Origin: Corallococcus coralloides
Lineage (GTDB): Bacteria; Myxococcota; Myxococcia; Myxococcales; Myxococcaceae
NCBI RefSeq assembly: GCF_004104415.1
Contig: NZ_CP034669.1
Length of the DNA: 64,000 nt
Direction: 5' to 3' (one strand)
A model generated the notes under the pieces. The model worked only from the letters and a program-made list of their open reading frames with translations, was not told the origin of the DNA and searched no databases. The position numbers and the translations under genes were made by a program. Positions 17,551 to 39,993 of the stretch are shown piece after piece; the first letter of the stretch is position 1; every line of letters starts with the position of its first letter.

Positions 17551-17613
17551 GACGAACCATTTCCTAGCACACGGACACGGCAACGGCGGCAGAGTGCCCG
17601 GCCACGAGGACCG

Positions 17614-22794: not shown

Positions 22795-25140
22795 ATGCGT
22801 CGACAAGGCACACTGTCTCGGGTTTTGTTTTGCGCTTTAATCAGTGCTGTCATTTCTGTCACGGCTTGTGACAATGGCAACGAACCGGAGCGGGAGACCG
22901 GCAACGTCCGGTTCGTCAGCGCGGTTCCCCAGGCGCTCGCGGGCGATGAGATCACCCGCGTGACCGTCACGCTGACGGCGTCCGGCGTGCCCTCCGCCAC
23001 CACCGTGCTCACCAAGGGCACGGAGGGCTGGAGCGGCACCATGTACCAGGTGCCCGCTGGCACCCAGCGCACCTTCACCGCGGAGGCCTTCGCCGCGGAC
23101 GGCGCCCTGCGCTACCGGGGCGTGGCCTCGGATGTCACCATCACCGCGGGCGCCACCTCCATCGTGGCCATCACCCTCCAGGCGCTGGATGTCCCGGGCC
23201 CGTTCGACAACTCGGCCCCGTGCATCGACTCGCTCGTGGCGTCCGCGAGCGCCGTCCTCCCCGGGGGCACCCTCTCCCTCCAGGCCACCGCGCATGATCC
23301 GGACGCGTCCGACTCCCTCACGTACGCCTGGACGGCGGCGGAGGGCACCTTCGGTTCGCCCACGCTCACGTCGACGACCTGGACGGCCCCCGCGACCCCG
23401 GGCGTGTACGCGCTGACGCTGACCGTCACCGACTCGCGCGGCGCCACGGCGACCATCCGCATCGACATCACGGTCATCTCCAAGGACGGCGGCACCACGG
23501 CCGGCACCGCGGAAGTGTCCGTCACGTTCAACATCTCCCCCGCCGTCACCCGCGTCACCGCGTCCCGGTCCCCCGTACCCGTGGGCCAGAGCACCACCGT
23601 CACCGCGGACGTGACGGATCCGGACGGCGACGCGCTGACCTACCAGTGGGCCGCGTCCTGCGCGGGCACCTGGGCGGATGCCACCTCCAACATCGCCTCC
23701 TTCACCCCGACCGCCGTGCCCGCTGGCGACGCGTGCGGCAACTGCGCGCTCACCGTCACCGTGAAGGACCCCAAGGGCGGACAGACGCAGGGCACGCTGC
23801 GCATCTGCGTGGGCGACGGCGCGAGCGCCAACGTCCCCCCGCGCATCGTCCTCGCGCACCAGAGCAGCGCGTCCGTGGTGGGCGACAACACCGTGACGTT
23901 CCGCGTCCTCGCGGAGGACGGCAACGGTGGCGCCCTCACCTTCAACTGGGCCTCGAGCACCGGCACGCTGGCGACGCCCGTGTCCGGGTTCACCTCCAGC
24001 GAGGTCTCCTGGAAGGCCCCCACCTGCGCGCCCACGGGCGGGAACGCGACCGTCACCGCCACCGTCACCAACGCCCAGGGCTTCTCCGCGTCCCAGGCCT
24101 TCACCGTGGCGGTGCAGAACGCCCCGGCGTGCACGCCGCCCACGACGGTCGCCCGGTGGGACTTGACGGCCAGCCTGACGCAGCGCCGCTTCGGCGCGAG
24201 CGTCATCCCCCTGGCCTCCGGGAAGATCCTCGTCTTCGGCGGGTCGGTGACCTCCAATCCCATCCTGGGCACCGCGGAGCTCTACGACCCCGCGACGGCG
24301 ACCTGGTCCGCGGCCGGAACCCTGGGCACCTCGCGCTACAACCCCGCGAGGACGCTGCTCCCCTCCGGCAAGGTCATGGTCACAGGCGGCTTCGCGTCGT
24401 ACCCGGCCACCACCCCGCTGCGCGCCGTGGAGTTCTACGACCCCGCGACCAACACCTGGACGGCTGGCCCGCAGATGGCCTTCGCGCGCGGCGCCCACAC
24501 CTCGACGCTGCTGCCCAACGGCAAGGTCCTGGTCATCGGCGGCGTCACCACGGGCGACAGCGTCAGCAACCGCTCCATCGAGCTCTACGACCCCGCCACG
24601 AACAACTGGGTGCCGGTGGCGAGCCCGACCTACGCCCGGTCCAACCACCGTGCCGTGCTGCTGCCGTCGGGCAAGGTGCTCACCGTGGGTGGCAACCTGC
24701 CGTCGGAGCTCTACGATCCATCCAACAACACCTGGAGCACCGCCACCGGCCTGACGACGCGGACGTTCACCGACGCCTTCCTCCAGCCGTCTGGCAAGCT
24801 GGTGCTGGTGGACGGGACGCTGGTCGCGACGTACGACCCGGTGCTCAACGTCCAGGCCACGCTGGGCCACTTCACCTACGAGCGCTCCAACTCCTCCCTG
24901 GTCCAGCTGAACTCCGGGAAGCTGCTGCTCGCGGGTGGCAACTCCACGGTGGGCCTGACGACGGAGGTGTTCGACCTGGCGACCGGCACGTCCGCGTTCT
25001 CCACCAGCATGGCGTCCAACCGCGACCTCATGACCACCACCGTGCTTCCCAGCGGCAAGGTGCTCTTCATCGGCGGCTATGACCGGGACGACGGAGCGAC
25101 CGTCAGCGCCGTGCTCGTCTACACGCCCGCGAGCCCCTGA
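22795..25140 (+). CDS. Kelch-repeat lipoprotein with N-terminal Ig-like/PKD-like domains
   Basis: Lipoprotein signal MRRQGTLSRVLFCALISAVISVTAC, a Thr/Ser/Ala-rich beta-sandwich repeat region, and at least six C-terminal Kelch-type blades (GGxxxxxxLxxAELYDPATxTW motifs). Confidence 0.88.
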   Translation: MRRQGTLSRVLFCALISAVISVTACDNGNEPERETGNVRFVSAVPQALAGDEITRVTVTLTASGVPSATTVLTKGTEGWSGTMYQVPAGTQRTFTAEAFAADGALRYRGVASDVTITAGATSIVAITLQALDVPGPFDNSAPCIDSLVASASAVLPGGTLSLQATAHDPDASDSLTYAWTAAEGTFGSPTLTSTTWTAPATPGVYALTLTVTDSRGATATIRIDITVISKDGGTTAGTAEVSVTFNISPAVTRVTASRSPVPVGQSTTVTADVTDPDGDALTYQWAASCAGTWADATSNIASFTPTAVPAGDACGNCALTVTVKDPKGGQTQGTLRICVGDGASANVPPRIVLAHQSSASVVGDNTVTFRVLAEDGNGGALTFNWASSTGTLATPVSGFTSSEVSWKAPTCAPTGGNATVTATVTNAQGFSASQAFTVAVQNAPACTPPTTVARWDLTASLTQRRFGASVIPLASGKILVFGGSVTSNPILGTAELYDPATATWSAAGTLGTSRYNPARTLLPSGKVMVTGGFASYPATTPLRAVEFYDPATNTWTAGPQMAFARGAHTSTLLPNGKVLVIGGVTTGDSVSNRSIELYDPATNNWVPVASPTYARSNHRAVLLPSGKVLTVGGNLPSELYDPSNNTWSTATGLTTRTFTDAFLQPSGKLVLVDGTLVATYDPVLNVQATLGHFTYERSNSSLVQLNSGKLLLAGGNSTVGLTTEVFDLATGTSAFSTSMASNRDLMTTTVLPSGKVLFIGGYDRDDGATVSAVLVYTPASP

Positions 25141-27006: not shown

Positions 27007-27099
27007 TCCGACGAAGACGTCGAATTCTGCCGGATTTCCGTCTTGCGGTGCGGTGCGTATTCTTCAGGAGTCCTGTTTCTCTTGAAGGAGCCGCCCGCG

Positions 27100-28695
27100 A
27101 TGACGCCCACGGAACGGACCATTGCCCGCCTTCCCGCCCACCTGCGCCGCTACGTGGTGAGCCAGGACTACGCGGCGTACACGCCCCGGGATCAGGCGGT
27201 GTGGCGGCACATCCTGGGGCAGCTGCGCGAGCACCTGAGCGACAAGGCGCACCCCGTCTACCTGGAGGGCCTGGAGGCCACGGGCATTGGCGCGGAGGCC
27301 ATCCCCAGCCTGGACGAGATGAACGAGAAGCTGTCCAAGCTGGGCTGGGCCTGCGTGGCGGTGCGCGGCTTCATCCCGCCGGCCGTCTTCACGGAGCTGC
27401 AGGCGCTGGGCGTGCTGGCCATCGCGGCGGACATCCGCACGCACGAGCACATCCAGTACACGCCCGCGCCGGACATCGTCCATGAGAGCGCGGGCCACGC
27501 GCCCATCATCGCCAACGCGCGGTATGCCCAATACCTCAAGGCCGTGGGGCTGGTGGGCTTCAAGGCCATCGCCAGCGTGGAGGACCAGGCCGTCTTCGAG
27601 GCCATCCGCAACCTCTCCGTGGTGAAGGAGGACCCCACCGCGACGGAAGAAGAGATCGCCCACGCCCAGGCCCGCCTGGAGGCCGCCAACGCCAGCCACC
27701 GCTACATCAGCGAGAGCACCCGCGCGAGCCGCCTGTACTGGTGGACCGCGGAGTACGGGCTGATTGGCGACCTGAAGCACCCGCGCATCTACGGCGCGGG
27801 CCTGCTGTCCAGCATCGGCGAGGCCCGGCACTGCCTGACGTCCGCCGTGCACAAGCTGCCCCTGGGCGTGGCGTGCGCGGACACGGACTACGACATCACC
27901 CGCATGCAGCCGCAGCTCTTCGTGGCGCGCGACTTCGAGCACCTCTTCGAAGTCCTGGCGGAGTTCGAGTCCACGCTCGCGTGGAAGCGCGGCGGGGACC
28001 ACGGCCTGAACGAGGCGCTGCGCGCGCGCACGGTGAACCACCTGGTGCTCGCGGACGGCCGCGAGGTGACGGGCAAGGTCGTGGAGCTGCTGCCCGCGGC
28101 GAAGGACGTGGCCCCGGGCCTGTCCACCGCGCTGGCCCGGCTGGAGGGCCCCATCCTCACGTCCGTGAACGGGCACGCCGTGGACAAGCCGTTCAGCGGC
28201 GCGGCGCTGGTCGCCTTTGGCCAGGGCACCCTGCCGGAGCGCGGGAGCTTCCAGCTCACGCTCGACAGCGGGCTGGTGCTGGAGGGCTTCGCGGTGGGCG
28301 GCGGCGAGGTGATTGCCCTGCGCGGCACGCTGGCCGGCCAGGAGCTGACGCTGCCGTCCATGGCGCGCCTGTACCTGACGGAGCGGCTGCCGTCCGTGGC
28401 GGGCGGCCCCGCCGACCCGGGCACGTGGGACGAGTGGTTCGGGGAGCTGGACGCCTTCACCGCGGGCGACGGCGAGGCCCAGGCGCGCGAGCGCAAGGCG
28501 CAGGCCCTGCCCCCGTCGCTGGCCGCCCTCTACACGGAGGTGCGCCGCATCCGCGAGGCGGGGCAGCTGGCCCCCGAGCGGCTGGAGCAGATCGCCCGGG
28601 CGAGCACGGACTTCCCTTCCGACTGGCTCCTGCGCGCCGAGGTCGCGGAGCTGCGCGGCGAGGTGCCCGCTCGGCGCGAGGCGGCGCACGCGTAG
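27100..28695 (+). CDS. phhA: phenylalanine-4-hydroxylase (biopterin-dependent aromatic amino acid hydroxylase) with ~250 aa C-terminal extension
   Basis: Aligns block-for-block with bacterial PhhA: YLEGLEATG..MNEKLSKLGWACVAVRGFIP, iron-binding PDIVHESAGHAPII and RLYWWTAEYGLIGD...RIYGAGLLSS. It has a GAAGGAG RBS. Total length is 531 aa versus ~270-300 for a typical bacterial enzyme. Confidence 0.85.
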   Translation: MTPTERTIARLPAHLRRYVVSQDYAAYTPRDQAVWRHILGQLREHLSDKAHPVYLEGLEATGIGAEAIPSLDEMNEKLSKLGWACVAVRGFIPPAVFTELQALGVLAIAADIRTHEHIQYTPAPDIVHESAGHAPIIANARYAQYLKAVGLVGFKAIASVEDQAVFEAIRNLSVVKEDPTATEEEIAHAQARLEAANASHRYISESTRASRLYWWTAEYGLIGDLKHPRIYGAGLLSSIGEARHCLTSAVHKLPLGVACADTDYDITRMQPQLFVARDFEHLFEVLAEFESTLAWKRGGDHGLNEALRARTVNHLVLADGREVTGKVVELLPAAKDVAPGLSTALARLEGPILTSVNGHAVDKPFSGAALVAFGQGTLPERGSFQLTLDSGLVLEGFAVGGGEVIALRGTLAGQELTLPSMARLYLTERLPSVAGGPADPGTWDEWFGELDAFTAGDGEAQARERKAQALPPSLAALYTEVRRIREAGQLAPERLEQIARASTDFPSDWLLRAEVAELRGEVPARREAAHA

Positions 28696-28800: not shown

Positions 28801-30402
28801 CTACGCGTTGCGGCGCACCATGGCCACGTCGTAGTGGCGCTCCGTCACGTAGCCGTTCGCGGCCTTGCCGGGGCGGTACATGTTCCCGGTCTTGTCATCC
28901 ACGTAGAAGCGGTTGTTCGGGTTCGTGTCCCGGCCCGTGCTGGCGTTCTTCGTGCCCGGGTCGTGGAACGTGTAGTAGGTGCGGCCCTTCTCGTCGACGC
29001 CGCGGCCCGTGATGGTCACGAAGTGGTCCGTGAGGCCGTCCGCGTTGTAGCTCGCGTCCTTGTGGCTCACGCCCACGACCACCGGCTTGCCGGCCTCCAG
29101 CTGCTTGTCGATGTAGTTGCGGCCCTCGGCGGCCTTCTTCGAGTCCACCTTCAGCGCGCCGGCGCCGTTCTCGCTCGTGCCCACCTGGATGCGGCGGTCG
29201 GGGCCCAGCACGGTCGCGCCCGCGTCGCGCGACATGGCCGTCGCGGCCTTGAAGCACGCCGTGTCGCTCGCCGTATAGCCGTGGCCGTTCTCGAACTGGC
29301 TGTAGTACGGCACCTTCACGTGCACCGCCGGCTTGTCCTTGGACGGGGCCACCTGCTCCGTGTTCGCGGGGGCCGCCTCCGTGGTGGGCTTGGACGTGTT
29401 CGTGCCCTGGCCTTCCGTGCGGCCCGGCTTCGAGTCGCCGCTCACGGACGGGGGGACCACGCCCGTGTTGGTGTTGGCCGGCTTCGTCGTGGCGCCCGAC
29501 TTCTCCTGCTTCAGCATCGCGAGCGCGTCCTTCGCCTCCGACTTGAAGCGGTTGGCCACGCCCTTCTGCACGTCCTTGGAGCTGCCGGAGAAGTGCACCA
29601 GGGTGCCGTTGCCGTTGGTGCGGCCGCGCTCGGCGTAGATGTCCTTGATGAGCTGCTCGTCGCTCACCTTCGAGGGGTCGCGCCCAGCCAGCGCCTTCTT
29701 GAAGATGTCATCCGCCTTGCCCGGGCCGTGCTGCACGGAGGTGGACCAGGCCACGTCCCGCAGCGCCGCGGAGCGCTTGTCCAGGTCGATGCCCGTCGCA
29801 CTCTTGATGTTGGCGGCGCCCTTGTCGTAGTGCGTGGCCTTGATGTAGTCGTGCTGCGCCTTGTCGAAGCCCTTCGGGTCCTTCGCCGCCAGCTGCTTCC
29901 ACGCGGCGGAGAACTGCGCGGAGCCCGGCTTGCTGCCCGACAGCGCCTGGTGGTACTCCGGGTGCGTCTTCTTCAGCGAGTTGACGAACGACTGCGCAGA
30001 CCCGTTCGCGGAGGCGAACTGGTAGGAGCCGTAGGACACGCCGCCCTTGTCGCCCTTGCCCGTGGACACGGTGCCGGGGCCGCGCGCCTCGTACTTGCGG
30101 CTCAGCCCGCCCAGCTCCCCGGTGGTCGCGCTGCTGGAGGACGTGTTCGTCGCGGGCGTCGTCGCCTTCGCGCCGTCGGTGGCCTGCGTGAAGCTGTCAC
30201 CCGAAGTCTTCGTCCCCGCGCTCGACTTCGTGGTGCCCTTCGTGTCGAAGCCGTCCTGCACCTTCAGCGTCTTGCCGGCCTGGATCTTGTTCGGATCCTT
30301 GATGTTGTTCGCCTTGGCCAGCGCGTCGACGGTCGTGTTGTAGCGCTTCGCGAGGCTGGTAAGCGTGTCACCCGACTTGATGCGGATATTGGAGACGGTC
30401 AC
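28801..30402 (-). CDS. LysM-domain effector-like protein with central unknown domain and C-terminal papain-fold (C39-like) cysteine-peptidase domain
   Basis: N-terminal LysM IRIKSGDTLTSLAKRYNTTVDALAKANNIKDPNKIQAGKTLKV directly at the start (no signal peptide), then a Lys/Thr/Ser/Gly-rich linker and a conserved-looking central domain (GVSYGSYQFASANGSAQSFVNSL...). The C-terminal domain opens VPYYSQFENGHGYTASDTACFKA...DHFVTITG...YTFHDPG, a Cys..His..Asp arrangement like C39-like/CHAP-like peptidases. Local GC is lower than the genome. Confidence 0.78.
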   Translation of the reverse strand: MTVSNIRIKSGDTLTSLAKRYNTTVDALAKANNIKDPNKIQAGKTLKVQDGFDTKGTTKSSAGTKTSGDSFTQATDGAKATTPATNTSSSSATTGELGGLSRKYEARGPGTVSTGKGDKGGVSYGSYQFASANGSAQSFVNSLKKTHPEYHQALSGSKPGSAQFSAAWKQLAAKDPKGFDKAQHDYIKATHYDKGAANIKSATGIDLDKRSAALRDVAWSTSVQHGPGKADDIFKKALAGRDPSKVSDEQLIKDIYAERGRTNGNGTLVHFSGSSKDVQKGVANRFKSEAKDALAMLKQEKSGATTKPANTNTGVVPPSVSGDSKPGRTEGQGTNTSKPTTEAAPANTEQVAPSKDKPAVHVKVPYYSQFENGHGYTASDTACFKAATAMSRDAGATVLGPDRRIQVGTSENGAGALKVDSKKAAEGRNYIDKQLEAGKPVVVGVSHKDASYNADGLTDHFVTITGRGVDEKGRTYYTFHDPGTKNASTGRDTNPNNRFYVDDKTGNMYRPGKAANGYVTERHYDVAMVRRNA

Positions 30403-30595
30403 GGAGAAGACCCCTCTATGTCAGGCCGCGAACAGACGCGCCGCGGACGTGCTTGGATTGCCCGGATTATCGGGAGGCAATGCGATCAGTTTCGTATTCC
30501 CAGTCACAATCGCGTCAAACCAGTGATTCCGGCAGCTTCAGTTTCAACGGACGGATCCGCTGATACTGAAGAACCTGCCCAGGAGGCCCAGTCGG

Positions 30596-31633
30596 ATGTC
30601 CAGGATCCAACCGGATTTCAAAAGTGTGGCATTGCTGTTTGCCATTTGCGTCACGAGCGCGGTCCCGGAGGCCTCGGCCCAGGGGCCCGAGGGACTCACG
30701 GGGGTCTATTCGAACAAGGGCGGGACGCTGGCCATCGTCGAGGGCAACAACGAGACGCTGGTGCACTTCTCCGGTTCGTTCCCGCAGGGGGAGAGCGCGG
30801 GCACCTGCGATTGCGCCCTGGTCGTCCAGAGGAAGAGCGCGACGAACTGGTCACTTCAGCAGGCGGGCGAGCAGGACGCATGGACGCTGCGCGTCAATCC
30901 CAAGCAGTTCGTGCTGGAGTCCGGTCCGTCACCGTCCTGTTGCGGAGCCGGCTACCCGGGCAAGGACACCTTCGCCCGGAGCACGGCCAGGCCGCTGGGC
31001 ATCTGCAAGGTGAAGGTGTCCAAGGCGGGCTTCCACGCGTCGGACGCGGCCAACACGCCGCGCAAGGCGTTCGTGGTGTCCGGCGACGCGGTGGAGGCCT
31101 ACGTCGACCCGGTGGAGCCGGACTTCCTCGCCGCGCGCTTCCAGGGGCCCCAGAAGGCCACGGCGGGGCTGCTCAAGCGCGAGGACCTGGACTGTGCGGC
31201 GGAGTCCGCGCCCAAGGCCGCCGTGAAGGCCCCCGTGGCCGCGGACAAGCTCCAGCCCTTCGCGGGGACGTGGGTGGAGCTGACGCGGCAGGGCAAGGGC
31301 TTCGTGGTGCTCAAGCCCTGCTCGGCCGCGACGCGCAGCTTCACGGTCAAGCCCGCCACGGGCGAGGTGGAGGTGCAGCTGGGCCAGGAGGCCACGACGC
31401 TGAAGGTGACGTCCGTGGAGCCCGGCAAGGGCGCCGGGGCCTGGGTGCTGGGGCTCACGGCCGCGGACGGCAAGCCGGAGGCGCTCCAATGGAAGACGGC
31501 CGACGCCGCGAAGGGCACCGTGTCCGTGAACAGCCCGGACCTCTTCTCCCAGAGCCACGACTACGTGCGCCAGGAGAAGAAGTCCGCCTTCCCGTCCAAG
31601 CAGGAGACGGGGTGCGACGAGTACGAGCGCTAA
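30596..31633 (+). CDS. secreted hypothetical protein (signal peptide), divergent partner of the LysM effector gene
   Basis: Signal peptide MSRIQPDFKSVALLFAICVTSAVPEASAQ, several Cys pairs (CDC, CCG) and no recognisable domain. Confidence 0.65.
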   Translation: MSRIQPDFKSVALLFAICVTSAVPEASAQGPEGLTGVYSNKGGTLAIVEGNNETLVHFSGSFPQGESAGTCDCALVVQRKSATNWSLQQAGEQDAWTLRVNPKQFVLESGPSPSCCGAGYPGKDTFARSTARPLGICKVKVSKAGFHASDAANTPRKAFVVSGDAVEAYVDPVEPDFLAARFQGPQKATAGLLKREDLDCAAESAPKAAVKAPVAADKLQPFAGTWVELTRQGKGFVVLKPCSAATRSFTVKPATGEVEVQLGQEATTLKVTSVEPGKGAGAWVLGLTAADGKPEALQWKTADAAKGTVSVNSPDLFSQSHDYVRQEKKSAFPSKQETGCDEYER

Positions 31634-32640
31634 CGCGCCCGTGAGCGACGCCGGGCCCGCAGGCCCCCGCCGAGCAGCAGCGCGACGAGCGCACCGGACA
31701 GGGGGCCCCCCCGCGTCGACGGTCCCCGCACCGACAATCCACGCTCTGCAGTTCGATGAGGGATTGGCGCTCCGCCTCTGACTTGCGGTGGCTGGCGATG
31801 TCCGCGAGCTGCTTCTCCTCCTCGCTGCGGATGCGCTTGAGCTCCACGGCGGCCTGGGCCTCCTGGCGTGAGGCGTCCAGCTGGATCTGGATGTTGGTGT
31901 CGATGGCCTCGCGCAGCTTCAGGGCTGTCTTCTCATCGACGGGGGCGATGTCCTTGATGTCGATGTCGATGATGCGCAGCTGGTTCTCGGAGAAGAGGCG
32001 GTCCTTGCGCGCGCGGCCCGCGTCATCCATGCCGAAGATGGCGCGGCGGATGAGCACGCTGGCGTTCTTGTGGAAGGTCTCGAACTCGTTCTCCGCGGCG
32101 ACCTGGCGGATGCGCGACGCGAGGTTCTCACACACGTACCCGATGAAGTCGTTCACCCGGAAGATGGACTTGTCCTTCTCCGGGTCGCCCTGCACGTCGA
32201 ACTGCCACTTGTAGGAAAGCTTGATGCGCAGCCGCGCGTGGTCGCGCGTGGCCACCTCGAACAGATCCGTGGCGAAGTCCGGCCCCAGCCGCAGCATCAG
32301 CACCTTGAGCTGGCGCGGACGCTTGGGCGTGCTGCCGGACAGGTCCAGCACGGTGACGTCCTCGTACGGGCGCAGCATCACCTTCGCGGGGCCGAACTCC
32401 ACGCGCGCGTGGTTGGTCTCGAAGTCGTTGATGAGGACCGCCGTGTTGTCCTCGATGCGCAGCACGATGGCGCGCGTGCGGTCCCCCTTCTCCGTCGCGA
32501 TCATGGGGCGAGGAGCGCGTGAGCACGCGCGGGCCGACTTCCATCAGCACGACGCCGCGGTTGGCGTCTTCGATGTATGCGTACTCGCGGTTCTTCAGGG
32601 AGATGCGCTGGATGGCTTCGGTGCTGGGGGCGGACGGCAT
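31630..32640 (-). pseudogene. major-vault-protein (MVP) repeat / SPFH-shoulder-like protein, read in three frames (two frameshifts)
   Basis: From ATG at 32640: RISLKNREYAYIEDANRGVVLMEVGPRVLT; then in another frame RAIVLRIEDNTAVLINDFETNHARVEFGPAKVMLRPYEDV. Both match the Vault repeat consensus (vRLxPgEyvhVlDxnTgxxRvevGPqtyvL). This is followed by a band-7/shoulder-like domain (IIDIDIKDIAPVDEKTALKLREAIDTNIQIQLDASRQEAQAA), a coiled coil, and in a third frame a hydrophobic tail LSGALVALLLGGGLRARRRSRAR*. Frame changes occur near 32505 (run of Gs) and near 31700-31745 (gggggccccccc run). Confidence 0.55.
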
Positions 32641-32883
32641 GGCACACCTGCTCGCGGGGGTGGGGTTCGGCCGTGAGACATTGCGAGCCCCATGCCGTCA
32701 CCGCTCCGCCCTGGAACGGCCCCGCACCGCGCCGGACTGGCATGGGTGCTCGCTCCAGTCCGGTGCGTGGTGTTCCAGACTGGAGCGCCTGCCGAGCTTG
32801 GAACGCTGCTCGGCGTCTGTTCGAATGCATCCTGTGCGCGGGCGGGGATGCTCCGGCCCGATGGCACCCACCCCGGAGGAAAC

Positions 32884-33114
32884 ATGAAGGCATCGCGACT
32901 GAAGCAGATGGTTCCTGGATTCGCGCTGATCATCGGCATCATGGCGGGCACGGCGCTGGCCATGGTTCCCGGCTCGACGGCGGAGACGAGCGAGAATCAG
33001 ACGTCTGCTGTCCAGATGATCTGTTCCCGCACCTGTAAGCCGTGCTCGACCCAGTTTGAGTGTGGAACGAACGGGGGTTCATGCGGGGTCTGGCGCTGCA
33101 CCAATCCTCAGTAG
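32884..33114 (+). CDS. small secreted cysteine-rich peptide precursor (76 aa, 6 Cys in mature part)
   Basis: MKASRLKQMVPGFALIIGIMAGTALAMVPGSTA|ETSENQTSAVQMICSRTCKPCSTQFECGTNGGSCGVWRCTNPQ*. Its 3' end is the first bases of the tandem repeat unit. Confidence 0.6.
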   Translation: MKASRLKQMVPGFALIIGIMAGTALAMVPGSTAETSENQTSAVQMICSRTCKPCSTQFECGTNGGSCGVWRCTNPQ

Positions 33115-33140
33115 ACACCTGAAAGAAGCGCCCCCATCCG

Positions 33141-33164
33141 CCTCCGAGTCCCAGGGCTCGGAGG
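33141..33164 (+). promoter_or_regulatory. 24-nt palindrome upstream of toxin gene copy 1
   Basis: CCTCCGAGtcccagggCTCGGAGG followed by ctttcc, 22 nt before the ATG. It is conserved in all three repeat units and could act as a hairpin, attenuator or operator. Confidence 0.35.
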
Positions 33165-33185
33165 CTTTCCAATTGTTGCGAAGAG

Positions 33186-34115
33186 ATGGCCATGCGTCTC
33201 CGGACATGCGGTGCCCTTTTGCTGCTGCTCGTTTTCTCGGCCTGCGCCACGACGGAGCCACGCGCCCGTGCGCCAGCGGCCCGCGGCACGAGGGCTGCCA
33301 ACCTCCAACGAGCGGCGGCGCTGCCCTGGAAGGATGATGGGCGGTGCGTTGTCCGCGAGGCGTCCCAGCCTTGGCCCGTGCTGGTGGAGCGGTGCTATCC
33401 GGCGCTCGACCATGACCGCGTCGAGTTCCGTGACACCACGGGAAGATGCACGGTCGCCTCCGCTGCCGCCGCGACCTTGGGAATCGGGTTCTGCGTGCTG
33501 GCGGCCCCTGAAATCGCCGTGGGAGCCGTCATCGTCCTGGGCGTGGTGGTGGTCGGCGTCGCCATCAAGGATGCACTGGATGCGTACGAGTTCCGCCACC
33601 ACTACCCCGAGGAAGCGGGAACCTCACGGGGGACGAAGGTCGCGTCCCGAGATGCCGCAGCGAAGCCGAAGCCCAAGCTGCAACCGGAGCCAGCGGGCCA
33701 GGGCAGACAGCCCCCGGTGCCGCCAGTGCCCGTGGACAGGACGGGCCGCGCCAGCTGCGAGCCTGTTCCCGTGCGTCACGCAGGCGAGGATCGTGCGCAT
33801 AACGAGTGTGCCGATAAGTTTCCGCCCAACCGTTATCCCGGGATGGATGTGCTTGTTGGCGGTGTACGCTTCGATGCGCTGCAAGTCGGTGTCCGCAAAC
33901 TGTGGGAGATCAAGACCCACCAATTCGATTCGTACAATGATTTCATCCGCGACAGGGAAATTGAAAAGGAACTGATTCAACTAGAGAGTGAGCGAAGAGT
34001 CGCTGAGGCTTGTGGATATGACTTCATCGTTGGGGTGAGTACCGAGGCGCACAAAGCGGCGCTGGAGGAACTGGAACCCACTCTCATTATCGTCGTCACA
34101 GGGTGTCAACGATGA
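33186..34115 (+). CDS. lipoprotein polymorphic toxin with C-terminal PD-(D/E)xK-like nuclease domain (copy 1)
   Basis: Lipobox MAMRLRTCGALLLLLVFSAC, a Cys-containing N-domain, a ~35 aa hydrophobic TM hairpin-like segment, a Pro-rich linker, and a C-terminal GMDVLVGGVRFDALQVGVRKLWEIKTHQFDSY (D...E-x-K arrangement of restriction-endonuclease-fold toxins). The last ~60 aa differ between copies. Confidence 0.8.
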   Translation: MAMRLRTCGALLLLLVFSACATTEPRARAPAARGTRAANLQRAAALPWKDDGRCVVREASQPWPVLVERCYPALDHDRVEFRDTTGRCTVASAAAATLGIGFCVLAAPEIAVGAVIVLGVVVVGVAIKDALDAYEFRHHYPEEAGTSRGTKVASRDAAAKPKPKLQPEPAGQGRQPPVPPVPVDRTGRASCEPVPVRHAGEDRAHNECADKFPPNRYPGMDVLVGGVRFDALQVGVRKLWEIKTHQFDSYNDFIRDREIEKELIQLESERRVAEACGYDFIVGVSTEAHKAALEELEPTLIIVVTGCQR

Positions 34116-34867
34116 CTACGCGAAAAAGACTCACTCTCATTGTCTACGGGCCTGCGCTCTTGGTTGACGACAGCCGCCCCGTCGCCATCGTCAATGGGCT
34201 GGAGAAGGCGTTGCCCAGCTTACGACTGGAGTGGGAAGTCGGAGAAGGCGGGCGCCTTATTGCATTGCCACGGCGCGACGAATGGCTCTTGGCGAGCATT
34301 GAGGATGGAGGATTCCCTCTCATATGCAACGGGGACGAGAGTTATCCCGTGACGGTCAATGGAAGGGACCGGTCCGAGCTCTTCAGTCCCGGCGGCCAGG
34401 CCCAATTTGAAGTTCATGCCAAGCTGCCACTCGACGCACCTGTAATCGCTGCAGCGGCGGCTCTGCTTGAGGCCGTGGCGGAAGGGGCTCGTGCGTTCTG
34501 GGGGCACGCGTCGCCGTATGGTTACGGCTCGGAAGTAGCGAAGCAGTTCCGCCGCTCACCGGATGGGCCCGATCTCTCACCCCGTGGGCTTCCCATGCTC
34601 AACCTTCCCCAGAAAAGCCCCAGGCCTGAGACGCCCTATTTCCTGGGGTGGCTGAACTACTGGTCCGCTGCCGCCGCGGAGGTCATCGGGTTCCCGGATC
34701 CTGCTCGCGATGCCGAGCTGCTCTCGCGGGCGCGTCGCACTCCGTCGGGCGGGTGGATCGTGCAGCTCACGGAGACACCGCTCGATTACGACAACCCCCT
34801 GCACGTGGAAGCGCTCAAGCGGACCTATGAGCGCTTCCCGGAGATCGGTGGACGCGAGGGGCCCTGA
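34112..34867 (+). CDS. cognate immunity-like protein (copy 1)
   Basis: ATGA overlap with the toxin stop. The N-terminal ~110 aa are variable between copies and the C-terminal ~130 aa are nearly identical (…WLNYWSAAAAEVIGFPDPARDAELLSRARRTPSGGWIVQLTETPLDYDNPLHVEALKRTYERFPEIGG). Confidence 0.75.
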   Translation: MTTRKRLTLIVYGPALLVDDSRPVAIVNGLEKALPSLRLEWEVGEGGRLIALPRRDEWLLASIEDGGFPLICNGDESYPVTVNGRDRSELFSPGGQAQFEVHAKLPLDAPVIAAAAALLEAVAEGARAFWGHASPYGYGSEVAKQFRRSPDGPDLSPRGLPMLNLPQKSPRPETPYFLGWLNYWSAAAAEVIGFPDPARDAELLSRARRTPSGGWIVQLTETPLDYDNPLHVEALKRTYERFPEIGGREGP

Positions 34868-34989
34868 TGCCCCGTTGCCGTTACCGCGCGTCCGCGCTCA
34901 GCGCCGTGCTTGTCGCGTACTCGGCCGTGACCAGGGCGAGGGCTCCTGCGGGGGGGGTGGCGCTGCACCAACCCGATGTAGACACCTGA
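34867..34989 (+). pseudogene. degenerate remnant of the Cys-rich peptide gene (unit 1/2 junction)
   Basis: tgATG overlap with the immunity stop. It encodes MPRCRYRASALSAVLVAYSAVTRARAPAGGVALHQPDVDT*. Its 3' DNA is homologous to the 3' end of the 32884..33114 gene. Confidence 0.3.
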
Positions 34990-35008
34990 CGGGAAGCATT
35001 CCCATCAG

Positions 35009-35032
35009 CCTCCGAGTCCCAGGGCTCGGAGG
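35009..35032 (+). promoter_or_regulatory. 24-nt palindrome upstream of toxin gene copy 2
   Basis: Identical CCTCCGAGtcccagggCTCGGAGG, 22 nt before the ATG at 35054. Confidence 0.35.
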
Positions 35033-35053
35033 CTTTCCAATTGTTGCGAAGAG

Positions 35054-35983
35054 ATGGCCATGCGTCTCCGGACATGCGGCGCCCTTTTGCTTCTGCTCAT
35101 TCTTTCGGCCTGCGCCACGACGGAGCCACGCCCCAGGGCGTCAGCGGCCCGCGGCACGAGGGCTGCCAACCTCCAACGAGCGGCGGCGCTGCCCTGGAGG
35201 GATGACGGGCGGTGCGTTGTCCGCGAGGCGTCCCAGCCCTGGCCCGTGCTGGTGGAGCGGTGCTATCCGGCGCTCGATCATGATCGCGTCGAGTTCCGTG
35301 ACACCACGGGAAGATGCACGGTCGCCTCCGCTGCCGCCGCGACCGTGGGAATCGGGTTCTGCGTGCTGGCGGCCCCTGAAATCGCCGTGGGAGCCGTCAT
35401 CGTCCTGGGCGTGGTGGTGGTCGGCGTCGCCATCCAGGAAGAATGGGACGCCTATGAGCTCCGCCATCTCTACCCCGAGGAAGCAGGAACCTCACGGGGG
35501 ACGAAGGTCGCGTCCCGAGATGCTGTAGAGAAACCGAAGCCCAAGCTGGAACCGGAGCCAGCGGGCCAGGGCAGACAGCCCCCGGTGCCGCCTGTGCCCG
35601 TGGACAGGACGGGCCGCGCCAGCTGCGAGCCTGTTCCCGTGCGTCACGCGGGCGAAGATGATCCCCATAACGAGTGTGCCGATAGGTTTCCGCCCAACCG
35701 TTATCCAGGGATGGACGTACTTGTGGGCGGTGTACGCTTCGATGCGTTGCAAGTCGGCGCGCGTGTGTTGTGGGAGATCAAGACCCATCAATTTGATTCG
35801 TACAATTCCTATATCCAAAAAAGAGAGATCGCGAAGGAACTCAAGCAATTGGACAAGGAGCGAGCCGTCGCATTGGCATGTGGATATCGCTTCGTTATTG
35901 GGGTGAGCACCCAAGCGCACAAAGACGCGCTACTCGAAGCAGATTCCTCATTCGATGTCGTCGTCACGGGATGCACACGATGA
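35054..35983 (+). CDS. lipoprotein polymorphic toxin, PD-(D/E)xK-like C-terminus (copy 2)
   Basis: 309 aa. It is near-identical to copy 1 through residue ~230, and its C-terminal tail diverges (…YNSYIQKREIAKELKQLDKERAVALACGYRFVIGVSTQAHKDALLEADSSFDVVVTGCTR). Confidence 0.8.
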   Translation: MAMRLRTCGALLLLLILSACATTEPRPRASAARGTRAANLQRAAALPWRDDGRCVVREASQPWPVLVERCYPALDHDRVEFRDTTGRCTVASAAAATVGIGFCVLAAPEIAVGAVIVLGVVVVGVAIQEEWDAYELRHLYPEEAGTSRGTKVASRDAVEKPKPKLEPEPAGQGRQPPVPPVPVDRTGRASCEPVPVRHAGEDDPHNECADRFPPNRYPGMDVLVGGVRFDALQVGARVLWEIKTHQFDSYNSYIQKREIAKELKQLDKERAVALACGYRFVIGVSTQAHKDALLEADSSFDVVVTGCTR

Positions 35984-36735
35984 CCAGACCTGGACGCCTC
36001 ACCTTCATTGTCTACGCGCCTGCTCTCGTGGGTAAAGATGGCCGCACGCTCGATGTCGTCCATGGGATGGAAAGGGCCTTCCCTGGCTTGCGGCTGGCGT
36101 GGCGGCTCTCGGATGGCGGTCGCCCCATCGCGCTGCCGCGACGCGACGATTGGCTCGTGGAAAAGATTGAGGACGGGGGATTCCCCATTGTGTGCAACGG
36201 GGACGAGGGTTACCCCGTGACGGTGATGGGGTGGGGAAGACTGGGAATCCTCAAGCCGGGCGGTCAGCCCCAGTTCGAAGTGCATGCAGAAATGCCTTTA
36301 GACGAGCCAGTGATCGCGGCGGCGGCGGCCGTGCTTGAGGCCATGGCGGAGGGAGCACGCTCATTCTGGGGCCACGCGTCGCCGTATGGTTACGGCTCGG
36401 AAGTAGCGAAGCAGTTCCGCCGTTCGCCGGACGGACCTGAGCTCTCCCCCCGTGGGCTTCCCATGCTCACCCTTCCCGAAAAGAGCCCCAGGCCGGAGAC
36501 GCCCTCTTTCCTGGGCTGGGTGAACTATTGGTCCGCTGCCGCCGCGGAGGTCATCGGGTTCCCCGATCCTGCTCGCGATGCCGAGCTGCTCTCGCGGGCG
36601 CGTCGCACTCCGTCGGGCGGGTGGATCGTGCAGCTCACGGAGACACCGCTCGATTACGACAACCCCCTGCACGTGGAAGCGCTCAAGCGGACCTATGAGC
36701 GCTTCCCGGAGATCGGTGGACGCGCGGGGCCCTGA
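35980..36735 (+). CDS. cognate immunity-like protein (copy 2)
   Basis: ATGA overlap. Its N-terminus diverges (MTRPGRLTFIVYAPALVGKDGRTLDVVHGMERAFPGLRLAWRL...) and its C-terminus is identical to copy 1. Confidence 0.75.
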   Translation: MTRPGRLTFIVYAPALVGKDGRTLDVVHGMERAFPGLRLAWRLSDGGRPIALPRRDDWLVEKIEDGGFPIVCNGDEGYPVTVMGWGRLGILKPGGQPQFEVHAEMPLDEPVIAAAAAVLEAMAEGARSFWGHASPYGYGSEVAKQFRRSPDGPELSPRGLPMLTLPEKSPRPETPSFLGWVNYWSAAAAEVIGFPDPARDAELLSRARRTPSGGWIVQLTETPLDYDNPLHVEALKRTYERFPEIGGRAGP

Positions 36736-36848
36736 TGCCCCGTTGCCGTTACCGCGCGTCCGCGCTCAGCGCCGTGCTTGTCGCGTACTCGGCCGTGACC
36801 AGGGCGAGGGCTCCTGCGGGGGTGTGGCGCTGCACCAACCCGATGTAG
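36735..36848 (+). pseudogene. degenerate remnant of the Cys-rich peptide gene (unit 2/3 junction)
   Basis: MPRCRYRASALSAVLVAYSAVTRARAPAGVWRCTNPM* retains the GVWRCTNP C-terminus of the intact peptide gene. Confidence 0.3.
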
Positions 36849-36875
36849 ACACCTGACGGGAAGCATTCCCATCAG

Positions 36876-36899
36876 CCTCCGAGTCCCAGGACTCGGACG
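36876..36899 (+). promoter_or_regulatory. palindrome variant upstream of toxin gene copy 3
   Basis: CCTCCGAGtcccaggaCTCGGACG, a slightly degenerated copy. Confidence 0.3.
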
Positions 36900-36920
36900 C
36901 TTTTCAATTGTTGCGAAGAG

Positions 36921-37850
36921 ATGGCCATGCGTCTCCGGAGCTGCGGCGCCCTTTTGCTTCTGCTCGTTTTCTCGGCCTGCGCCACGACGGAGCCACGCCC
37001 CAGGGCGTCAGCGGCCCGCGGTAAGAGGGCTGCCAACCTCCAACGAGCAGCGGCGCTACCCTGGAAGGATGATGGGCGGTGCGTTGTCCGCGAGGCGTCC
37101 CAGCCCTGGCCCGTGCTGGTCGAGCGGTGCTACCCGGCACTCGACCATGACCGGGTCGAGTTCCGCGACACCACGGGAAGATGCACGGTCGCCTCCGCTG
37201 CCGCCGCGACCGTGGGAATCGGGTTCTGCGTGCTGGCGGCCCCTGAAATCGCCGTGGGAGCCGTCATCGTCCTGGGCGTGGTGGTGGTCGGTGTCGCCAT
37301 CCAGGAGGAATGGGACGCATATGAACTGCGCCACCACTACCCCGAGGAAGCTGGGACCTCACGAGGGACGAAGGTTGCGTCCCGAGACGCTGTAACGAAG
37401 CCGAAGCCCAAGCTGGAACCGGAGCCAGCGGGCCAGGGCCGGCAGCCCCCAGTGCCGCCTGTGCCCGTGGACTGGACGGGCCGCGCCAGTTGCGAGCCTG
37501 TTCCCGTGCCTCACGCGGGCGAAGATGATCCCCATAACGAGTGTGCCGATAAGTTTCCTCCCAACCGTTATCCAGGGATGGACGTACTTGTGGGCGGTGT
37601 ACGCTTCGATGCGCTGCAAGTCGGCGTGCGCAAACTGTGGGAGATCAAGACCCACCAATTCGATTCATATAACGCCTTTGTCCAGGATCAGGAGATTGCG
37701 AAGGAAGTGATACAACTGAAGAAGGAGCGAGCTGCCGCAGCGGCATGTGGATACGACTTCGTCGTGGGGGTGAGTACCCAAGCGCATAAAGACGCGCTAC
37801 GCGAAGAAGTTCCCGCGATCGATGTCGTCGTTACGGGGTGTGCACGATGA
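36921..37850 (+). CDS. lipoprotein polymorphic toxin, PD-(D/E)xK-like C-terminus (copy 3)
   Basis: 309 aa, with a third variant of the C-terminal tail (…YNAFVQDQEIAKEVIQLKKERAAAAACGYDFVVGVSTQAHKDALREEVPAIDVVVTGCAR). Confidence 0.8.
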   Translation: MAMRLRSCGALLLLLVFSACATTEPRPRASAARGKRAANLQRAAALPWKDDGRCVVREASQPWPVLVERCYPALDHDRVEFRDTTGRCTVASAAAATVGIGFCVLAAPEIAVGAVIVLGVVVVGVAIQEEWDAYELRHHYPEEAGTSRGTKVASRDAVTKPKPKLEPEPAGQGRQPPVPPVPVDWTGRASCEPVPVPHAGEDDPHNECADKFPPNRYPGMDVLVGGVRFDALQVGVRKLWEIKTHQFDSYNAFVQDQEIAKEVIQLKKERAAAAACGYDFVVGVSTQAHKDALREEVPAIDVVVTGCAR

Positions 37851-38608
37851 CCAGGCGGAGAGCCCTTACCCTTATCGTCTACGCGCCTGCGCTCATGGGT
37901 AACAACAGCCGCACAGTCGCCGTCGTCCATGGGATGGAGAAAGCGTTCCCCGGCCTACGCCTGGAGTGGAAACTAGATGAAGGCGGGCGCCCCATTGCAT
38001 TGCCACAGCGCGATGCATGGCTCTTGGCGAGCAACAAGGACGGTGGATTCCCAATCGTGTGCAACGGCGATGAGAGTTACCCCGTGACGGTCTGGGGAAT
38101 GGAAAGCTCAGGCATCCTCAGCCCAGGCGGTCAGGCCCAGTTTGAAGTCCACGCAAAGCTGCCCTTGGACGAGCCTGTAATCGCGGCAGCGGCGGCTCTG
38201 CTTGAGGCCGTGGCGGAGGGGGCACGTTCATTCTGGGGGCACGCGTCGCCGTACGGCTACGGCTCGGAAGTCGCGCAGCAGTTTCGCCGATCACCGGACG
38301 GACCTGAGCGTTCCCCTCGTGGGCTTCCCATGCTCAAGCTTCCAGAGACACTCCCAGCGCCTGAGATTCCCTGTTTCCTCGGGTGGCTGAACTATTGGTC
38401 CGCGGCAGCCGCGGAGGTCATCGGGTTCCCGGATCCTGCTCGTGATGACGAACTGCTCTCGCGGGCACGCCGCACTCCGTCGGGCGGGTGGATCGTGCAG
38501 CTCACGGAGACTCCGCTCGATTACGACAACCCCGTGCACTTGGACGCGCTCAAGCGGGCCTACGAACGCTTTCCAGCAATCGGCGGGCGCACAGCGCCTT
38601 TGCCCTGA
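37847..38608 (+). CDS. cognate immunity-like protein (copy 3)
   Basis: ATGA overlap. N-terminal variant (MTRRRALTLIVYAPALMGNNSRTVAVVHGMEKAFPGLRLEWKL...). Confidence 0.75.
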   Translation: MTRRRALTLIVYAPALMGNNSRTVAVVHGMEKAFPGLRLEWKLDEGGRPIALPQRDAWLLASNKDGGFPIVCNGDESYPVTVWGMESSGILSPGGQAQFEVHAKLPLDEPVIAAAAALLEAVAEGARSFWGHASPYGYGSEVAQQFRRSPDGPERSPRGLPMLKLPETLPAPEIPCFLGWLNYWSAAAAEVIGFPDPARDDELLSRARRTPSGGWIVQLTETPLDYDNPVHLDALKRAYERFPAIGGRTAPLP

Positions 38609-38614
38609 AACAGG

Positions 38615-38650
38615 ACAGCCGCCCGTCACCTCTCCGGCGCGGGCGGCTGT
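38615..38650. terminator. GC-rich hairpin between convergent genes (bidirectional terminator candidate)
   Basis: ACAGCCGCCCG-x14-CGGGCGGCTGT is an 11-bp stem, located between the immunity copy 3 stop (38608) and the rdgC 3' end (38667). Confidence 0.45.
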
Positions 38651-38666
38651 TCCATCAATCTCCCAC

Positions 38667-39993
38667 TCAGCCCCGGGCAGCGCGGGCGTCACGGCCCTTG
38701 GCGCGGGCGGCCTTGGAGAGCAGGTCGCTCCCCTTCTCCTCGCCCTTCATCCACGCCTTCAGCGCGGGCACCACCTGCTTGCTCCAGGCGCGTCCGGCGC
38801 GCACGGCCAGGAAGTCCTGCACCAGCGCGTCCACGATGGCGGAGAGCTGCTCGGTCAACTCCAGACGCTCGGAGAGCTGATCATCCTCTTCCTCCGTCAT
38901 GAGCGCGGGCAGCTTGGCGGCGCGAATGTCCAGGAACTCGGAATCCAGCGTGACTTCGTATTCGCGCTCGCCGTGCGAGATGCGCAGCCGCGCCTGGGAC
39001 ACCAGCAGGCCCCGGTCCAGCGAGTGGCGCACGTTCTCCGAATACGGCGCCAGCGTGCCCTTGGCGCTCATCTCCGTGACGTCGCCGGCCACGCCGCGCA
39101 GCACCACCTTGCCCAGGTAGAGCACCACGACGCCCGCGCCGTCGTGCTCGACCAGCGGGTCGCCCGACTCCGAGCGCCACAACAGCCAGGTCATGAACTC
39201 GCGGCCCAGGTAGGCCCGGCCGCGCAAGAGCTGTTCGCGCGCCTTGCCCTTTTCGACTTCGGCTTCGTCCTTCTCCTCCTCCGTGGCGGCACCATCCACG
39301 CCGACATCGCCCCGGGCGAACGCCGCCTCTTCCCTCGCCTGCTCACGCCTCGCCATGGGTGTCCTCCACCGAAGCCGTCGCCGGCAGGTCCATGCCAATG
39401 AGCTCCGCCGTGGGGCCCAGGGCCTTCTCGTCGATGCCCGCGCGCTGCGCCATGGACGCGGGCGTGATGCCAATCACCTTCACCGCGAGGGCGCCTTCCA
39501 GCGCCACGCAGATCTCATCCACCGTCTTGCGCGACGCGGCCCAGACCTGCACCGTGTGCGTCTTCAGGTTCCACGTCACGTCCAGCGTGCTGGTGCGCGG
39601 CACCGCGCGCTGACGCAACAGCTGCTTGAGCTCCGCGCGCTGCTTGTTCTTCTCCGCGCGCGCGGGCGGCCGGCCGTTCTCCTTGCCGAAGGCGGCGGCC
39701 CACTTGTCCAGCTCCGACTTCATCATCGACGCGGGCACCTTCAGCGTGTCGATGCGGAAGGAGAACAGGGCGTACTCGCCATAGAAGAGGTTGCCGGTGG
39801 CGAACTCGGAGGACTCCGGGTTCTCCAGCTCGACAAACCCTGCGGCGCGCTCCTCCTCGGAGCGGCGGTCGATGGGCTCGAACGCATGGGACTTGAGTCC
39901 CTTGGTCATCCAGCGCTTCACGTCGGACGGCGCATCCTTGGCCGGCTCGGTCCGGAAGCGCGAAAAGGTCACGGCACCACGTAGGACAGGCAT
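38667..39993 (-). pseudogene. rdgC: recombination-associated protein RdgC homologue, split into two overlapping frames
   Basis: The N-terminal two-thirds (39343..39993, MPVLRGAVTFSRFR...ELKQLLRQRAVPRTSTLDVTWNLKTHTVQVWAASRKTVDEICVALEGAL) and the C-terminal third (38667..39356, ...MTWLLWRSESGDPLVEHDG...LSERLELTEQLSAIVDALVQDFL) each align with consecutive parts of RdgC. They lie in different frames and overlap at 39343-39356. Confidence 0.6.

Follow-up and report, generated by a model that had tools for sequence, protein, structure and literature searches.

Three allelically distinct candidate toxin–immunity cassettes in a variable phhA–rdgC interval of Corallococcus coralloides

What kind of DNA separates phhA from rdgC in Corallococcus coralloides, and was it acquired in one piece? 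We analyzed a stretch of 64,000 nucleotides of contig NZ_CP034669.1 (hereafter the window), in which a block at positions 28801–38700 lies between a gene for a phenylalanine-hydroxylase-like protein (phhA; 27097–28695, 99% identical to that of C. coralloides KYC2213) and an RdgC-like gene pair (rdgC). The original prediction described an accessory, effector-like and compositionally odd block, a description that our results support, and explained it as a single horizontally acquired island, an explanation contradicted by codon usage, by slots that vary independently and by an intact rdgC. Our reading instead, to which we assign a probability of about 0.6, is that the phhA–rdgC interval is a hypervariable hotspot of interbacterial-conflict genes with separately evolving parts, and that its toxin slot holds three allelically distinct lipoprotein nuclease toxin–immunity cassettes. 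The parts would be three: a hydrolase gene with native codon usage and a divergent gene for a 345-amino-acid (345-aa) probable immunity protein, a decayed gene for major vault protein (MVP), and the 5.9-kb slot. This would be a known kind of system, built from two families, DUF6310 and DUF5953, that are still annotated as being of unknown function; a full-text literature search found no papers on either.

The slot contains three tandem units of ~1.87 kb each, repeating with a period of 1868/1867 bp, and each unit encodes a 309-aa DUF6310 protein followed by a 251–253-aa DUF5953 protein, called the toxin and immunity copies here after their predicted roles (Table 1). The start codon of the second gene overlaps the stop codon of the first as ATGA in all three units, so that the two genes are translationally coupled. 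Immunity copy 3 runs on into the rdgC flank, like the single copy of relatives (blastn against L001, L002, and L003; L numbers designate compared loci). The toxins start with a lipobox, VFSAC (LLLLVFSAC), whose cysteine, Cys20, is invariant in 89 homologues, and there is no Lys at position +2 after it. The N-terminal domain has four cysteines: Cys54, Cys70, and Cys88 are conserved, and the fourth conserved one, Cys103, lies inside a 40-residue hydrophobic stretch (residues 89–128; Kyte–Doolittle values up to 2.7) next to a Pro-rich linker. The C-terminal domain (residues 186–309) has a PD-(D/E)xK nuclease fold, in which D221, D230, E241, and K243 are invariant.

Table 1. Features of the phhA–rdgC interval, given as positions in the window; gene names reflect predicted functions
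Feature	Coordinates	Strand	Description
Accessory slot, 5.9 kb	32788..38666		From the MVP upstream region to rdgC; boundaries from blastn against L008 and L009
Putative toxin copy 1, 309 aa	33186..34115	+	DUF6310 lipoprotein
Putative immunity copy 1, 251 aa	34112..34867	+	DUF5953, Pfam 1.8e-113; start overlaps toxin stop
Inter-unit spacer 1	34868..35053		3' remnant of a different pep76 allele, then toxin upstream region (blastn to L001, L058)
Putative toxin copy 2, 309 aa	35054..35983	+	DUF6310, Pfam 1.5e-56; distinct allele in the C-terminal 70 residues
Putative immunity copy 2, 251 aa	35980..36735	+	DUF5953, 7.7e-113; distinct allele in the N-terminal ~112-130 residues
Inter-unit spacer 2	36736..36920		Nearly identical to spacer 1
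Putative toxin copy 3, 309 aa	36921..37850	+	DUF6310, Pfam 2e-57
Putative immunity copy 3, 253 aa	37847..38608	+	DUF5953, 1.4e-119
pep76, 76-aa peptide gene	32884..33114	+	Hydrophobic N-terminal leader, six-Cys C-terminal core, good Shine–Dalgarno sequence
GC-rich hairpin	38615..38650		ACAGCCGCCCG ... CGGGCGGCTGT; between the convergent immunity copy 3 and rdgC genes; common to strain CA049B
Cell-wall hydrolase, 533 aa	28801..30402	-	LysM, VgrG3-like C-terminal muramidase, and C39-like peptidase domains
Divergent intergenic region, 193 bp, GC 0.58	30403..30595		Between the hydrolase gene and the 345-aa gene
Secreted 345-aa protein gene	30596..31633	+	Signal peptide; divergent from the hydrolase gene
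MVP pseudogene	31745..32640	-	Pfam Vault_3 and MVP_shoulder
RdgC-like gene pair, 229 aa and 216 aa	38667-39356 and 39343-39993	-	Conserved right flank

Profile searches of DUF6310 and DUF5953 against the sequences in the Protein Data Bank (PDB) gave nothing meaningful, NCBIfam returned nothing for toxin or immunity, and fold comparison alone was productive. AlphaFold models of toxin and immunity each matched a member of the TseT–TsiT pair of Pseudomonas, with sequence identities of 7–16%. The AlphaFold2 (AF2) model of immunity copy 1 had a pLDDT of 89 and a pTM of 0.89, and its only Foldseek hits below 1e-3, six in number, were BPSL2088, the protein PA0821 of a type VI secretion system (T6SS) and the TsiT chains 9oz0_A and 7dym_B (E 6e-9 to 6e-6), the TsiT chains with a probability of 1.0. 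Tox-REase-5 effectors pair with Imm52 proteins (bioRxiv 10.1101/835710); the Pfam family Imm52 (PF15579) gave a weak in-register hit to immunity copy 2 that is below the cut-off (E 0.058), and the UniRef names of some DUF5953 relatives likewise point to Imm52. The two-sided match of both partners to one solved effector–immunity complex is our strongest evidence that the units are toxin–immunity pairs, and DUF6310 and DUF5953 would gain a testable assignment as a Tox-REase-5-like nuclease toxin and an Imm52-like immunity protein.

The same match raises the question of whether the toxins are T6SS effectors like TseT, given that the nearest solved structures for both partners are those of a T6SS pair and that a gene for a VgrG3-type hydrolase lies 3 kb away. 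TseT–TsiT (P. aeruginosa PA3907–PA3908) and the pairs described here are alike in a nuclease fold of the Tox-REase-5 type and in an immunity fold of the Imm52 type encoded directly downstream. They differ in that DUF6310 and DUF5953 form separate Pfam families; moreover, TseT has no signal peptide and needs PAAR, VgrG, and a DUF4123 chaperone, whereas the DUF6310 toxins have a Sec/lipoprotein signal and their own N-terminal module (N-module). Cytoplasmic loading onto a T6SS cannot be reconciled with a cleavable lipoprotein signal peptide, and no PAAR, VgrG, Hcp, or DUF4123 chaperone gene was found here or at the four other loci examined (L081 and L083–L086 are the ones named). We consider a T6SS effector role extremely improbable. 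The PAAR-linked T6SS nuclease pairs of Myxococcus xanthus (MXAN_0050/0049; PMC12077131) were also considered as a counterpart and rejected, as there is no PAAR gene at the locus.

To place the toxins among their relatives, we scanned 1.84 billion cluster representatives with HMMER, which yielded 370 DUF6310 relatives, and classified the best 150. Both the lipoprotein N-module and DUF6310 were present in 25 of these 150. In another 18, DUF6310 formed the C-terminus of unrelated longer proteins, namely, proteins with the core domain of extracellular contractile injection systems (eCIS; PF13699), transglutaminase-like proteins of ~1050 aa and one CBM2 protein, and in approximately 10 the lipoprotein N-module carried other C-termini, such as Ntox16 or an HExxH domain, although at least one of the latter looks like a frameshifted DUF6310 copy. 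Across the DUF6310 architectures, conservation extends to the catalytic residues and to three of the four cysteines in the C-domain. Because N-module and toxin domain are swappable and occur with other partners, the family fits a polymorphic toxin–immunity system. It shares with Rhs proteins, CdiA-CT, and eCIS cargo (eCIS core/DUF4157) a swappable C-terminal toxin that is reused on other scaffolds, a toxin–immunity interface that co-varies, and the occurrence of orphan immunity genes and tandem cassettes. Unlike in those systems, a very short lipoprotein serves as the scaffold, in place of a large filamentous or Rhs-type protein, and the arrays are built from complete toxin genes where those systems have displaced C-terminal 'orphan' fragments. 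From its domain architectures, the DUF6310 nuclease is probably also a cargo toxin of eCIS. The eCIS-core (PF13699) proteins with a DUF6310 C-terminus are P0280, P0331, P0365, P0366, and P0387.

The family is large: at 90% identity there are more than 900 clusters of toxins in the lipoprotein form and more than 1400 clusters of immunity proteins. Named members come almost exclusively from Corallococcus, Myxococcus, Pyxidicoccus, Stigmatella, Hyalangium, and Archangium (Myxococcaceae/Archangiaceae), with several copies per genome. No protein of M. xanthus DK1622 was among the best 120 matches to the homologue from M. virescens. A second DUF6310 cluster is present in the genome of C. coralloides B035, where the paralogue is EJ065_4949.

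How would such a toxin reach its target? SitA proteins are lipoprotein toxins moved by TraAB outer-membrane exchange, after which a family-specific escort domain takes the nuclease across the inner membrane (PMC8546572), and by analogy with them the cassettes plausibly serve kin discrimination. In the proposed mechanism, the toxin would be exported as a lipoprotein via its lipobox with the invariant Cys and handed to neighboring myxobacteria, most plausibly by TraAB outer-membrane exchange, as SitA is. The conserved N-module, with its 40-residue hydrophobic hairpin, would then carry the nuclease across the inner membrane of the recipient, and the nuclease would cut cytoplasmic DNA there unless a matching immunity allele is present. 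Three non-identical pairs may thereby give a broader kill-and-protect barcode than is found in relatives with one pair or an orphan immunity gene. The likeness to SitA/SitI includes the lipobox signal, the conserved N-module with a C-terminal nuclease, and the immunity gene directly downstream in the operon; it also extends to the many polymorphic copies in each genome, to chromosomal loci at which close strains differ, and to the Myxococcaceae/Archangiaceae range, the presence of traAB in these genomes being taken from the literature. In strain HW-1 and in M. virescens, DUF6310/DUF5953 pairs lie within ~7 kb of SitA5 and SitA6/SitI6 loci recognized by NCBIfam (L086 15135–16916; L081 15925–16917), and the neighboring SitA5 locus has an escort domain, with the Pfam domain AHH in the toxin and Imm11 encoded by the gene that follows. 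In HW-1 (CP002830), the pairs fall within 1,090,744–1,107,661. In these genomes, toxin loci are thus clustered.

Several points weigh against this reading, beginning with the fact that toxicity, nuclease activity, immunity specificity, and cell-to-cell transfer are all properties that we infer. Pfam gave no hit of PF15648 (Tox-REase-5) to the toxins even at E 10, and the predicted link between DUF6310 and Tox-REase-5 is structural only; AF2 gave no confident model for toxin residues 82–187. SitA escort domains reportedly measure ~375 aa, in a series of six families that runs from SitA1/2 to SitA7 (PMC8546572, PMC5562445), against ~140–185 aa for the N-module described here. There is no sitB, and the N-module matched neither SitA5_escort (NF050093) nor SitA6 (TIGR02269) of NCBIfam, though both models recognize neighboring proteins in L086 and L081; the comparison covered these two models. 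Lastly, the hydrophobic stretch resembles an inner-membrane anchor, which fits badly with an outer-membrane lipoprotein.

This last point is what one would expect if DUF6310/DUF5953 were instead an intracellular toxin–antitoxin or phage-defense module, in which a nuclease anchored in the inner membrane faces the cytoplasm of the producing cell, where an antitoxin restrains it, with no delivery at all. The immunity protein indeed has no signal peptide, the Pfam scan found no secretion-system genes nearby, and Tox-REase-5/Imm52 pairs have been argued to stem from toxin–antitoxin systems (bioRxiv 10.1101/835710). PADLOC matched the immunity protein to the candidate defense protein PDC-M17B, but the match is insignificant (E 0.0057). 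However, the lipobox and the invariant Cys20 point to export, DUF6310 is a cargo-type C-terminus on eCIS-core proteins, and the N-module bears several unrelated toxin C-termini. Orphan immunity genes, degraded toxins with a kept immunity gene, and stacked divergent alleles also fit warfare between strains. We therefore regard the intracellular alternative as unlikely and prefer the delivered, SitA-like toxin. A further possibility, which we put forward only tentatively, is that the ~305-aa DUF6310 lipoproteins form an undescribed family of two-way modular myxobacterial toxins, the N-module of which is distinct from the published SitA escorts and may act as a self-contained device for exit and inner-membrane crossing.

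Might the three copies be no more than a recent triplication in place, or an artefact of assembly, that lacks any functional differentiation? The regular period and the almost identical junction spacers would suit this. However, the identity between units is a mosaic, 91–100% in the first 720 nt of the toxin gene and in the 3' part of the immunity gene, and 62–82% from the 3' end of the toxin gene through the 5' half of the immunity gene. In this toxin-C/immunity-N module the units differ by 18–38% at the nucleotide level, with dS (synonymous substitutions per site) of 0.65–1.09 compared with 0.17–0.49 in the conserved parts. The ratio of nonsynonymous to synonymous substitution (dN/dS) is 0.12–0.30 throughout, and all six open reading frames (ORFs) are intact; the six genes are thus under purifying selection everywhere, and the variable module is simply much older. 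Furthermore, each variable module is nearest to alleles of other strains or species, not to its neighbors in the array: that of unit 1 resembles C. coralloides CA054B and CA049B and C. carmarthensis, that of unit 2 resembles AB049A and C. interemptor, and in unit 3 the immunity gene resembles that of KYC2213 and the toxin is a distant match to that of C. exercitus. Two consecutively numbered genes of C. coralloides B035 on a 9.59-Mb contig, EJ065_4681 and EJ065_4680, correspond at 100% identity to toxin copy 3 and immunity copy 2, respectively, and the window accordingly belongs to B035 or to a strain that cannot be told apart from it. An undifferentiated triplication or an artefact is, on this evidence, very improbable.

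Judged from these sequence comparisons, the specificity modules appear to be old allele classes common to other strains and species. Each module, the C-terminal ~70 aa of the toxin with the N-terminal ~112–130 aa of the immunity protein, has probably been exchanged through the conserved flanks. Both spacers carry the 3' end of a 'QGEGSCG'-type allele of pep76 (~34927–34980 and ~36795–36850), the peptide gene upstream of the array; this allele occurs in C. exercitus SDU142 and is unlike the intact pep76 of the window. From the near-identical junctions with their foreign pep76 remnant, we infer that one recombination event formed the junction and that the array then expanded by unequal crossing-over. 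Arrays of two units are found elsewhere, at unrelated loci, in C. exiguus and strain HW-1. Should the DUF6310 lipoproteins indeed form an undescribed toxin family, the stacking of old allele classes at one slot would show how kin-recognition 'barcodes' expand by recombination without a mobile element.

We next compared the interval among genomes, using 80 phhA loci, one genome per species, with 10-kb flanks (tblastn and blastn), and further loci retrieved by exact protein look-up. Four C. coralloides strains had four configurations, with 0, 1, or 3 toxin genes. CA049B, whose flanking proteins are 96–100% identical to those of the window, has the LysM hydrolase gene, the 345-aa gene, an intact MVP gene for 755 aa, pep76, one toxin–immunity pair and rdgC. 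B035 has the same order but with three pairs, and two deletions, one internal (905 bp) and one at the 3' end, break its MVP gene. CA054B has one pair and an intact MVP gene, its LysM and 345-aa genes are shortened by deletion, and two extra genes are present, while KYC2213 has only pep76 and an orphan immunity gene. Reduced forms also occur in C. exercitus SDU142, with a shortened toxin and an intact immunity gene, and in RDP092CA, with an immunity remnant only. This natural series of orphan immunity, one pair, and three pairs in one species suits tests of how repertoires set kin boundaries.

The toxin slot is filled in most relatives and is occupied in at least six Corallococcus species; because one DUF6310/DUF5953 pair sits in the same slot in several species, the occupancy is polymorphic and of long standing, not an insertion peculiar to one strain. 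In C. terminator and C. praedator, the space between MVP and rdgC holds two tandem GDSL-type lipase genes with a native GC content at third codon positions (GC3) of 0.94 (L009 17460–19255; L008 19141–20999), which makes the slot a general cargo site, and other genes replace the LysM and 345-aa genes. Whether the LysM and 345-aa pair is present, deleted, or replaced does not depend on the state of the toxin slot, and the genus-conserved MVP gene lies between the two. The original prediction had proposed a check of whether phhA and rdgC are adjacent in other genomes: they were never adjacent, and outside Corallococcus no MVP, rdgC, or LysM gene lies within 10 kb of phhA. Gene order is not conserved in all relatives, as the slots differ, yet within Corallococcus MVP always lies between phhA and rdgC. 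A third variable position is occupied by two genes (513 aa and 321 aa) without Pfam domains in L083 (4581–7087) and is empty in the window; ~3.1 kb is also found between the 345-aa gene and MVP in L004, L005, and L058.

These comparisons bear on the alternative that the whole of 28801–38700 is one genomic island that was inserted between phhA and rdgC and disrupted rdgC. In its favor, GC reaches its window-wide minimum in the block, its content is effector-like, and the interval varies between genomes. However, an intact and genus-conserved MVP gene lies between two variable slots that vary independently, and the toxin slot is occupied across species, as described above. As the original prediction had already stated, there is no mobility gene or tRNA anchor: the Pfam scan of the ORFs of the block gave no integrase or transposase domain, and ARAGORN found 0 tRNA genes in the window, where flanking direct or inverted repeats are likewise absent apart from the tandem units. 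Nor is rdgC disrupted. It consists of two overlapping, translationally coupled ORFs, and the same two are kept in every Corallococcus locus, including those free of the array, and are called as two coding sequences in other assemblies (L083, L084, and L009). The upstream ORF (216 aa) carries the N-terminal half of Pfam RdgC and ends ...VEDTHGEA-TGA; the 14-nt overlap, ATGGCGAGGCGTGA, is preceded by GGAGGA, and the ATG of the downstream ORF stands 14 nt before the upstream stop. The split may mean that RdgC naturally has two subunits here or that a recoding site has been conserved. Together with the codon usage described below, these results make a single island highly improbable, and we retain the reading of separately evolving parts.

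The GC content of the block is 0.657, the lowest in the window; the other 9.9-kb windows of the stretch (345 windows, non-overlapping) had a mean of 0.703, a standard deviation of 0.005 and a minimum of 0.693. The drop below the ~70% flanks that had been reported is therefore real, but it has two separate causes. For codon composition, we combined a frame-resolved GC plot with GC3 per gene for ORFs of at least 200 aa, and preferred gene-based GC3 to the window-based 'maximum-phase GC', which gene junctions depress. The LysM gene has a GC content of 0.679 with a GC3 of 0.976 and a first-position GC (GC1) of 0.56, and its low GC arises because the protein is rich in Lys, Thr, Ser, and Asn, not from foreign codon usage. 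The GC3 of the 345-aa gene is 0.94, and that of the vault-protein remnant is ~0.96 over its coding stretch in the frame plot and 0.86 across the whole listed ORF. Native codon usage thus extends over ~40% of the block, in these three genes. The grouping of the LysM gene, the divergent intergenic region, and the array as low-GC DNA was right about the dip but wrong in giving it a uniform cause, and codon usage separates 28801–32640, with a third-position GC of 0.94–0.98, from the slot at 32788–38666.

The third-position signal drops to ~0.70 from ~32650 to ~38620 in the frame plot, and the slot, with a GC content of 0.642 and a GC3 of ~0.70, is the sole compositionally atypical part of the block. 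The six array genes have GC3 values of 0.70–0.71, below those of every other ORF in the window that encodes at least 200 aa (0.77–0.98). The lowest values within the array belong to the variable module, where the toxin C-terminus has a GC content of 0.49–0.54 and a GC3 of 0.57–0.58; toxin copy 1 holds, at 33927 within this variable C-terminal part, an A/T-rich string quoted in the original prediction. At all loci examined in Corallococcus and Myxococcus, the DUF6310/DUF5953 genes have a GC3 of 0.63–0.77, compared with 0.83–0.98 in neighboring genes. Since low GC3 accompanies the family at unrelated loci, it characterizes the gene family and does not date an import as recent. As an alternative to foreign origin, the A/T-rich variable segments possibly reflect a loss of GC3 in places where homologous recombination, and the GC-biased gene conversion that comes with it, seldom occurs. 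In each unit, the most A/T-rich DNA (GC 0.49–0.62; 33900–34450, 35770–36320, and 37640–38180) coincides exactly with the most divergent, specificity-determining segment. These findings call for caution in island calling in genomes of 70% GC, as a GC dip can reflect amino-acid composition, as in the LysM gene, and a GC3 that stays low can belong to fast-evolving conflict genes as a family, without signalling recent import. A weaker third-position signal or a local GC content of 0.61–0.65 is also seen at ~17200–19500, 22000–23000, 46200–46800, and 52300–53000, for example in an ORF at 18390–19070 with a GC3 of 0.77; none of these regions equals the toxin slot in length or in depth of the dip.

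In the left part of the interval, the 533-aa hydrolase matched the Pfam families LysM (1.7e-15) and T6SS_VgrG3-like_C (9.9e-53) and, among PDB sequences, 4noo (VgrG3C, 3e-27) and 9jdd (C39-like, 4e-22); it has no signal peptide. The 345-aa protein had no match in Pfam, NCBIfam, or PDB sequences. The two genes are present, shortened, or missing together (L001–L011, L057, L058, L083, and L084), which suggests an effector–immunity pair, and on the basis of this co-occurrence the 345-aa protein is probably a periplasmic immunity partner of the hydrolase. Two genomes retain just the 3' ends of both genes, joined by a single deletion (L005 11711–12014; L083 3547–4584 is also cited). The pair resembles VgrG3–TsiV3 of Vibrio cholerae in that the central domain of the hydrolase is homologous to the C-terminal muramidase of VgrG3 and the neighboring secreted protein co-varies in presence, as a periplasmic immunity protein would. 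By contrast, the hydrolase lacks a VgrG spike domain and carries additional domains (LysM and C39-like peptidase), no similarity of the 345-aa protein to TsiV3 or to any other protein was detectable, and the two genes diverge instead of forming one operon. The region between the two genes presumably holds the promoters of both.

The 905-bp deletion in the MVP pseudogene is frameshifting and lies at 32518/32519, and the 3' end of the gene has been lost, with the junction at 31711–31745 (blastn breakpoints). MVP is intact, with 755–763 aa and a GC3 of 0.92–0.95, in CA049B, CA054B, C. terminator, and C. praedator. The gene may truly have decayed, or the assembly may have collapsed the vault repeats.

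Downstream of the array, the sequence of the GC-rich hairpin makes it a likely terminator, although a simple terminator scan, which was not above chance for the slot, did not call it; a promoter scan of the slot found nothing. Upstream of the array, the pep76 product matched no family in Pfam or NCBIfam, and its core has the pattern C-x3-C-x2-C-x6-C-x6-C-x4-C. Orthologues occupy the same position in L001, L002, L058, L083, and L084 and are absent from L003 and L004. The gene is not present at DUF6310 loci elsewhere but is kept directly upstream of the toxin slot in several Corallococcus genomes, where it could encode a bacteriocin-like peptide or an accessory factor.

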